From Escherichia coli (GTDB lineage Bacteria; Pseudomonadota; Gammaproteobacteria; Enterobacterales; Enterobacteriaceae), in NCBI RefSeq assembly GCF_009931435.1, contig NZ_CP043414.1: a stretch of DNA of 64,000 nt, one strand, 5' to 3'. Shown here piece by piece: positions 9,001 to 12,000 of this stretch; the stretch's first letter is position 1, and every line of letters begins with the position of its first letter. The position numbers are program-made.

Positions 9001-12000
9001 ACGTTTTTGGGTCAACCAGACGTTGCCAGCTGTAGACAAAATCCTGTGCCGTTACCGGTGTGCCATCCGCCCATTTTGCGTTATCGCGCAGGGTGAAAGT
9101 CCAGATACGGTTGTCATTACTTTTCCACTGAGTCGCAACGCCGGGGACAATCTCCCCTTTCTCGTTCTGATTCACCAGTCCTTCAAAAAGATCGCGAATG
9201 ACCTGAATCTCTGGCAGACCCACGGCTTTAGCGGGATCCAGCGACGCAGGCTCATCTTTAATATGGCGCACCAGCTCCTGCTTCTCTGCCAGTACTGTGC
9301 CGCTCGGAACTTCTGCAGCATACGAAAGAGAAATGCTGCTGACCAACAGCGCACAACACGTGACTGAAACAGAGTGCTTCATAAGTTACCCTCAAACCTG
9401 CGTTAATAATCATGCGTAATTATTTGTTTCGCCTTAAAGAAATGCAAACAACTTCCGGCAAAAAAGTGATACAAGATCGATAACATAGCGTTGAAGAAAA
9501 GGATTTGATAATCCGCAAAATTTGCACAACACTGCCTGTAATACTTCCTGAACCAGAGACGATCATGACCGTAACTCGCCCACGCGCCGAACGCGGCGCA
9601 TTTCCGCCCGGTACAGAACATTACGGACGTTCATTATTGGGCGCGCCTTTGATCTGGTTTCCGGCCCCAGCCGCCAGTCACGAAAGTGGTTTGATTCTGG
9701 CTGGCACCCACGGTGATGAAAACTCTTCGGTCGTGACCCTCTCCTGTGCTTTGCGGACATTGACACCTTCTTTGCGCCGCCATCATGTGGTGCTGTGTGT
9801 GAATCCTGACGGCTGCCAGTTAGGGTTACGGGCCAATGCTAATGGCGTGGATTTAAATAGAAACTTTCCGGCAGCAAACTGGAAGGAAGGTGAAACGGTT
9901 TATCGCTGGAACAGCGCCGCTGAAGAACGTGATGTCGTTTTACTGACAGGTGACAAACCTGGCTCCGAACCTGAAACTCAGGCGCTGTGCCAGCTTATAC
10001 ATCGCATTCAACCTGCCTGGGTGGTCTCATTCCACGATCCACTGGCCTGTATTGAAGACCCCAGACACAGCGAATTAGGTGAATGGCTGGCCCAGGCGTT
10101 TGAATTGCCACTGGTCACCAGCGTCGGTTATGAAACGCCTGGCTCTTTCGGCAGTTGGTGTGCGGATCTCAACCTGCATTGCATCACCGCAGAGTTTCCG
10201 CCCATCTCCTCCGACGAAGCCAGCGAAAAATACCTCTTTGCGATGGCTAACTTGCTGCGCTGGCATCCTAAAGATGCAATGCGCCCGTCGTGAATTGAAG
10301 CGCCGGTTCCACATCTACCGCCAGCCAGGTCGGTCCGTCAAGATCAGCAAAACTGACCTGCGGCACCAGCGGTAAAGCGGCGCTAATGGCACGAGAGGTA
10401 CACAACATGCAGCCCAGCATCAGACTGAAACCTTGTGCACGCGCTTCGGTCGCCAGCGCCAGCGCCTCCGTCAGGCCACCCGTTTTATCGAGCTTGATGT
10501 TAACCATCTCATAGCGCCCTTGCAGCGCCTTCAGATTGCTACGGGTATGACAACTTTCATCAGCACAAATCGGTAACGGATGAATAAAATTCTCCAGTGC
10601 CGCATCGTCCTGCGCAGGAAGCGGTTGTTCAAGCATCGCAACGCCTAAATCCGCGAGCAGTTGGCAACGCGCCGCCAACCCTTCTGCACGCCAGGATTCA
10701 TTTGCATCAACGATAAGCGTCGCGTCGGGCACAGCCGTGCGAATTGCTACCATCCGCTCACTGATAAGATGGTTATCCAGCTTCACTTTCAGCAATTTCG
10801 CGCCTGCCTGCCACAGTGTTGATGCACTATTGGCCATCTGATCAGGCGTACCGATGACTACCGTCTGGGCAGTGGTGACTGTCTCGGGAAGCGTTATGCC
10901 GATCAAATCAGCCAGCGATTGCTGCTGTTTTCGCGCCGCCAGATCCCACAATGCACAATCCAGCGCATTACGTGCTGCGCCGGCAGGGAGAATTTTTTGC
11001 AACTCCTCCCGTGTCAGCCCTTTCTCTAATTGCGGCACGACGCTCATAATTTGCGCCATTACCGAGGCATCACTTTCTCCATAACGCGGATACGGCGTGC
11101 ATTCACCGGTGCCTTTAATACCTTCTTCTTCCAGTTCAACCACCACCACGCGCGCTTCACTACGACTTCCCCGAGCAATCACAAACGGGGTATGTAAGGG
11201 CCAGGCTTCCTCAAATACCTTAACGGTTCTCATCTTTACTCCTTGTTGTCGCGGTGGTCTGCGGATTAAGCGCAAATAGCGTTTGCTGTGTTATTGACAG
11301 TTAGCATAAACTAGGTGTGACGTTAACTATATGTAAACAGGAAAGATAATCATGTCACAAACCGTTCATTTCCAGGGCAACCCGGTTACAGTCGCCAATT
11401 CCATCCCGCAGGCGGGTAGCAAAGCGCAGACTTTTACTCTCGTGGCAAAAGATCTGTCTGACGTCACCCTCGGTCAGTTTGCGGGTAAACGCAAAGTGCT
11501 GAACATTTTCCCGAGTATTGATACCGGTGTTTGCGCCGCATCAGTACGTAAGTTTAACCAACTGGCAACCGAGATCGACAACACCGTTGTGCTGTGTATC
11601 TCTGCCGATCTTCCGTTCGCCCAGTCTCGTTTCTGCGGCGCAGAAGGTCTGAACAACGTTATCACCCTCTCCACTTTCCGTAACGCTGAATTCCTGCAAG
11701 CCTACGGTGTGGCAATTGCTGATGGCCCACTGAAAGGTCTGGCAGCGCGTGCCGTTGTGGTTATTGATGAAAATGACAATGTGATTTTCAGCCAGCTGGT
11801 GGATGAAATCACCACCGAGCCGGATTACGAAGCAGCTCTGGCTGTACTGCGCTAAACAACTGTGCCGTTCACTGAATCACCACCGGTGAACGGCAGTTTT
11901 TGATCTACCAGTCCCACTATTTTCCAGAGTTCCTGCCACTATTCCCCCTAACCGTTGTGCATTAAGATTGCTCTTTGCCATTATTAGCCCAGCGGAGTGA

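Follow-up and report, generated by a model that had tools for sequence, protein, structure and literature searches.

The 26-bp overlap of the convergent mpaA and ycjG genes in Escherichia coli, a probable product of 3′-end extension from a 10-bp overlap

The analysed window is a stretch of 64,000 nucleotides from the Escherichia coli contig NZ_CP043414.1, in which mpaA and ycjG face each other tail to tail and end inside each other on opposite strands (Table 1). The ORF list and the sequence confirm exactly the extent of the shared 3′ ends that had been given by the sequence-only reading of this DNA. On the + strand, the shared stretch encodes the end of MpaA, (P)KDAMRPS and the stop codon, and on the − strand it encodes the end of YcjG, TGALHL and the stop codon. 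Seen from the + strand, the TAG stop of ycjG is CTA. The two frames are phased such that the third codon position of ycjG lies opposite the second codon position of mpaA. In a local sample, the first 32 kb of the window, five gene pairs are convergent, and of these mpaA/ycjG alone overlaps.

Table 1. Features at and around the mpaA/ycjG junction, in window coordinates
Feature	Position	Strand	Description	Basis
mpaA CDS	9565..10293	+	murein tripeptide amidase, 242 aa; stop TGA at 10291-10293	ORF list, PDB, RefSeq, Pfam
ycjG CDS	10268..11233	-	L-Ala-D/L-Glu epimerase, 321 aa; stop TAG at 10270..10268	PDB, RefSeq, Pfam
Convergent CDS overlap	10268..10293	both strands	26 bp	ORF list and sequence
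1-nt length difference versus 10-bp lineages	10267..10271		CCTCAGAGATGA versus CC-TAAAGATG	alignment of 25 junctions and C-terminal peptides
C-rich, G-poor stretch (candidate Rho loading region)	10411..10566	+	C/G 1.4-1.6; ~120-270 nt past the mpaA stop, antisense to ycjG	78-nt windows
First clearly C>G stretch past the ycjG stop (candidate Rho loading region)	~9839..9955	-	C/G ~1.8; antisense to mpaA	78-nt windows
mppA	7769..9382	-	murein tripeptide binding protein; divergent from mpaA	ORF list, RefSeq
tpx	11352..11855	+	divergent from ycjG, on the strand of mpaA	ORF list, RefSeq

The 321-aa product is near-identical end to end to the E. coli epimerase of known structure (PDB 1JPD, E=9e-209), including the terminal LHL residues. 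For the 242-aa product, the alignment with E. coli MpaA (PDB 5HXD, E=7e-166) extends through residue 237 of 242, and the Vibrio MpaA (4AXV) aligns as well. Pfam assigns Peptidase_M14 to the mpaA product and MR_MLE_N and MR_MLE_C to the ycjG product. These PDB and Pfam matches, together with orthologues in 80 species, identify both ORFs as real genes in the frames given here, and the PDB matches bear out the gene names proposed in the sequence-only reading. If one frame or one stop were wrong, the overlap would be an annotation artefact, and the sole hint in this direction is the deposited 5HXD chain, which ends at residue 237 without the last five residues of MpaA. We give this reading almost no credence. 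It is already refuted by the matches to the solved E. coli proteins and by the frames conserved in 80 species, and the RefSeq entries of independent genomes agree on these ends.

In the RefSeq annotation of strain 2013C-4282, both genes and their 26-bp overlap have coordinates identical to those of the window. In K-12 MG1655 (NC_000913.3), ycjG (b1325) at 1388930..1389895 (+) and mpaA (b1326) at 1389870..1390598 (−) likewise overlap by 26 bp. Of 5426 complete genomes of E. coli, 5413 contain the locus, at 95-99% identity to a 2-kb query spanning the junction. Base 10281 within the overlap is G in the window and T in K-12, and this one substitution alters both proteins (I239M in MpaA and E318A in YcjG). 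The two genes are a convergent, overlapping protein-coding pair that is reproducible in related genomes. The overlap itself is already known, because it is present in the reference annotation, and the overlap of the antisense transcripts has been catalogued as well (discussed below).

With the flanking genes, the pair forms an alternating block, mppA(−)/mpaA(+)/ycjG(−)/tpx(+), which is found in about 75 of 80 Enterobacteriaceae loci (the best 80 of 215 relatives). K-12 differs from the window in that ymjC-ymjD-ycjY-pgrR is inserted between mpaA and mppA, whereas mppA adjoins mpaA in the window. The direct adjacency (window 9383-9564, with a breakpoint at ~9440-9470) is shared by just 172 of the 5426 complete genomes of E. 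coli, and the others carry the K-12-type insertion. Because almost all other Enterobacteriaceae have mppA next to mpaA, the arrangement of the window is probably ancestral. On the other side, a 680-aa ORF (window 12009-14051, +) lies between tpx and tyrR and is annotated as a "hypothetical protein" in the RefSeq entry of 2013C-4282. It has no Pfam match and is not in K-12, and no counterpart turned up in the other 80 Enterobacteriaceae loci, examined with flanks of 2.5 kb. In K-12, p19 capture of dsRNA detected antisense RNA over the whole tpx CDS, which was attributed to read-through from tyrR to ycjG (PMC7373196). The 680-aa ORF of the window would lengthen or interrupt any such transcript.

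The junction was compared within the Enterobacteriaceae. MpaA was used to scan 100,044 species-representative genomes, and the best 80 of 215 relatives, all of them Enterobacteriaceae, were taken. Both orthologues were placed by tblastn in each of the 80 loci, and each frame was read to its stop. The stops overlap in 74 of these 80 loci. An overlap of 10 bp is the most frequent (45/80), followed by 26 bp (24/80) and 4 bp (3/80), and overlaps of 33 bp and 47 bp occur in one locus each. A spacer of 88-331 bp separates the genes in 5/80 loci, and a disrupted ycjG still abuts mpaA in 1/80 (Citrobacter koseri). Within this set, only Escherichia, Salmonella and Citrobacter have the 26-bp state. The 10-bp junction, TCAGAGATGA, carries TGA as both stops and is found in genera that include Enterobacter, Klebsiella, Raoultella, Kluyvera, Leclercia, Kosakonia and Trabulsiella. 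The sequence-only reading had named one observation that would overturn it, namely that aligned homologues assign another stop codon to either gene. The mpaA homologues of 45 other species do stop 16 nt earlier, giving the 10-bp overlap, but the E. coli stops stand because they are fixed by frames that match 1JPD and 5HXD.

Other variants, in which the stop codons have moved in Citrobacter, demonstrate the lability of both gene ends. In three loci (L015, L016 and L019), two substitutions change CTAAA to CTTGA, which abolishes the stop of ycjG and gives mpaA an early one, so that the 26-bp overlap is reciprocal. Loss of the ycjG stop alone has extended the overlap to 47 bp in C. youngae ATCC 29220. 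Four of the spacers are about 300 bp long (L040:3230-3513, L047:3227-3529, L050:3227-3538 and L052:3227-3557) and belong to a small clade of an Enterobacter sp., Pluralibacter sp. UBA7423 and relatives. In this clade, a 39-aa hydrophobic ORF is encoded within the spacer, downstream of ycjG (MVDWEEEGVSTQEVLTKRMIDTVGLVILLAVVMAVLCFV in L040), and the spacers of three of its four members (L040, L047 and L050) contain a canonical bidirectional intrinsic terminator. An 88-bp REP-like palindrome serves as the spacer in L043. An apparent "gap" of -580 bp in C. koseri (L013) was rejected as a spacer, because ycjG is disrupted or frameshifted there and its homology abuts mpaA. In this genome (NCTC10786, ~1981-2946 of the locus), a premature stop interrupts ycjG, and tblastn gives just 57% identity along its entire length. 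Either the gene is a pseudogene or the assembly is in error.

Alignment of the 26-bp and 10-bp junctions indicates how the two states are related. YcjG ends in FTTGxLHL in both, whereas MpaA ends in PQR in the 10-bp state and in PKDxxxS in the 26-bp state, and the ycjG stop is TGA in the former and TAG in the latter. The 26-bp state is probably derived and the 10-bp state ancestral, with the direction of the indel assigned by parsimony over the sampled genera in an unrooted comparison. Across the sampled Enterobacteriaceae, the two genes typically lie stop to stop without a spacer, and 10 bp is the usual overlap. In the lineage of Escherichia, Salmonella and Citrobacter, a 1-nt deletion beside the ycjG stop would have spared the conserved C-terminus of YcjG, and the same deletion would have shifted the last two codons of mpaA out of frame and past the old TGA. 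The mpaA gene would thus have become 16 nt longer, running to the next stop, with the overlap extended to 26 bp and the MpaA terminus changed from PQR to PKDAIRPS. The new seven-residue tail of MpaA (KDAIRPS in K-12) is dictated by the coding sequence of ycjG on the opposite strand.

Column entropies calculated from 23 sequences of the 26-bp type are in line with this dictation. Inside the overlap, the entropy is 0.86 at the third codon position of ycjG and 0.11 at the second. The region of mpaA upstream of the overlap shows 0.08 at its own second position and 0.96 at its third, and the overlap exhibits the reverse of this pattern for mpaA. The difference between codon phases in the overlap gave p=0.02 in a Mann-Whitney test (7 versus 7 sites). 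The MpaA tail varies freely, appearing as AIRPS, AMRPS, AIRRS, GVARS, EVARS and GVDPS, and its last five residues are missing from the 5HXD chain. Because the variation in the overlap follows the codon phase of ycjG, the alignment shows the MpaA tail to be passively set by ycjG, apparently with no constraint of its own. We consider it likely that the overlap is an ordinary product of 3′-end extension between two real genes, which is tolerated rather than used.

The sequence-only reading had also argued that neither gene has room for its own terminator and that transcription of each must enter the antisense of the other. The latter point holds, because each RNA polymerase must copy no fewer than the final 23-26 nt of the opposite gene in antisense before it comes to its own stop codon. 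The former is correct in that intergenic DNA is absent and no terminator is detectable, but it is slightly too strong, as the CDS of the partner could house one. On neither strand did a consensus scan of 9300-11500 detect an intrinsic terminator at the junction or shortly beyond it. The three terminator-like sites in this interval are not above the shuffle expectation of 2.6, and none is at the junction. Scans of T runs and local folds detected no hairpin with a U-tract within ~200 nt on either strand, and the T runs near the junction have no preceding hairpins. A search of 9300-11500 against Rfam at a permissive E-value gave no match.

A bidirectional hairpin or a cryptic intrinsic terminator embedded in the CDS of the partner would make the read-through short and defined. 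Bidirectional, non-canonical terminators are common between convergent E. coli genes (bioRxiv 10.1101/2022.10.23.513370), and ExcludonFinder gives a pooled figure of 146 among 165 convergent excludons for which TransTermHP predicts overlapping terminators (PMC12288877). At this junction, the ycjG stop is spanned by a 5-bp palindrome, GCATC/GATGC, but no U tract accompanies it, and it is not preserved in either Citrobacter or Salmonella. The + strand at 10285-10400 folds with z=-2.8, but this is one of five windows tested, and the other local folds are unremarkable. This fold was rejected as a conserved element: RNAalifold, applied in 56 species to the 116 nt that follow the mpaA stop, yielded a consensus of only -1.58 kcal/mol with no meaningful covariation. 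In the opposite direction, the 116 nt past the ycjG stop gave -0.97 kcal/mol in 54 species, again with no meaningful covariation. RNAalifold and palindrome conservation thus revealed no conserved bidirectional stem-loop of the SEnd-seq type at the junction. Together with the absence of a hairpin followed by a U-tract and of an Rfam match, these results make an embedded terminator very improbable.

Because no terminator was detected between or just beyond the two stops, each mRNA would extend untranslated into the antisense of its partner, in agreement with the published RNA-seq overlap in K-12. C-rich, G-poor stretches are located downstream of both stops (Table 1), and their composition makes them candidate loading regions for Rho. 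Rho acting on this C-rich untranslated RNA, or decay, would end the transcripts inside the partner gene. Termination probably takes place there, most likely by Rho, which is favoured by the base composition of these stretches. The literature searched contained no Rho/bicyclomycin or 3′-end data for mpaA/ycjG. At the low expression expected of recycling genes, transcriptional interference between the two is probably negligible.

Strand-specific RNA-seq across the junction, which the sequence-only reading had proposed as a check, has in effect been published. According to ExcludonFinder, ycjG-mpaA is among 165 convergent excludons with transcripts that overlap in at least 50% of 58 MG1655 RNA-seq sets. 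In K-12, ExcludonFinder also counts tpx-ycjG among the divergent excludons and calls mpaA-ycjG-tpx a "noncontiguous operon", and it states that excludon pairs in general show higher synteny (PMC12288877). These calls would fit a junction that is a selected antisense module, either an excludon or interleaved "noncontiguous operons", in which the absence of a terminator is maintained. Read-through from mpaA would produce RNA antisense to ycjG and reach tpx, and read-through from ycjG would produce RNA antisense to mpaA and, in the window strain, reach mppA. Expression of the genes would then be coupled or opposed via transcriptional interference and cleavage of the duplexes by RNase III. The p19-captured dsRNA across tpx, for which read-through from tyrR to ycjG was proposed (PMC7373196), and the retention of overlapping stops and of the alternating four-gene block in the best 80 of 215 relatives are also compatible with such a module.

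However, MpaA and YcjG catalyse consecutive steps of murein-tripeptide breakdown (PMC2954226), and both genes are listed in the K-12 PgrR regulon (PMC5934670). Because the two enzymes belong to one pathway and one regulon, mutual exclusion, the hallmark of an excludon, makes little sense for this pair and is unlikely. Five lineages have gained a spacer, which carries a bidirectional terminator or a REP-like palindrome, and have kept both genes. The length of the overlap drifts among 4, 10, 26, 33 and 47 bp, as is the case for neutral movement of stop codons. The "noncontiguous operon" of PMC12288877 was called automatically from coverage and is not a demonstrated single transcript, and the junction is outside the top 20 p19 dsRNA clusters that overlap protein-coding genes (PMC7373196). 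Because spacers were inserted without loss of the genes and the length of the overlap drifts, neutral tolerance is favoured, and we regard a selected antisense module as unlikely. The stop-to-stop packing in 74/80 loci could also reflect selection for antisense coupling. That the mppA/mpaA/ycjG/tpx block consists of two interleaved "noncontiguous operons", with the terminator-less junction kept by selection, seems quite unlikely. If it were the case, read-through would balance the import, cleavage and epimerisation of murein tripeptide by antisense, and if antisense coupling were real, the locus would be a useful model for the regulation of peptidoglycan recycling.

With neutral tolerance as the preferred reading, the overlap matters little. 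It is an ordinary feature that has been annotated and catalogued, and its origin now has an explanation in a probable 1-nt deletion followed by 3′ extension. It has a modest didactic value: the series of overlaps from 4 to 47 bp, the reciprocal stop swaps in Citrobacter and the terminator-bearing spacers illustrate how convergent overlaps may arise via stop-codon drift, with one frame dominating the evolution of the shared stretch.

Three known systems can be compared with this junction. The bidirectional terminators found by SEnd-seq, such as that of uspE-ynaJ, also concern convergent pairs in which head-on transcription is resolved. However, SEnd-seq sites have an intergenic hairpin, whereas the mpaA/ycjG junction has neither intergenic DNA nor a conserved hairpin. 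The convergent pair uspE (+)/ynaJ (−) is itself present in the window (5191-6448), ~4 kb from mpaA/ycjG, with a gap of 49 bp (~6142-6190), and the ynaJ terminator has served as the bidirectional model in single-molecule work on RNAP collision (bioRxiv 10.1101/2022.10.23.513370). The convergent excludons of ExcludonFinder resemble mpaA/ycjG in being neighbouring convergent genes with overlapping transcripts. Most excludons, however, overlap in their 3′ UTRs only, with a mean intergenic distance of 95 nt (PMC12288877), whereas here the coding sequences themselves overlap. The closest likeness is to the model of Kingsford et al. 2007, in which, as summarised in PMC3887535, convergent overlaps arise by random 3′ extension. 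As in that model, a stop would have been bypassed, here by a 1-nt frameshift, and the gene would have extended into its convergent neighbour, leaving a short overlap and an apparently unconstrained tail. With respect to the model as summarised there, we see no substantive difference, and at this locus both intermediate states and the reciprocal variants persist in living genera.
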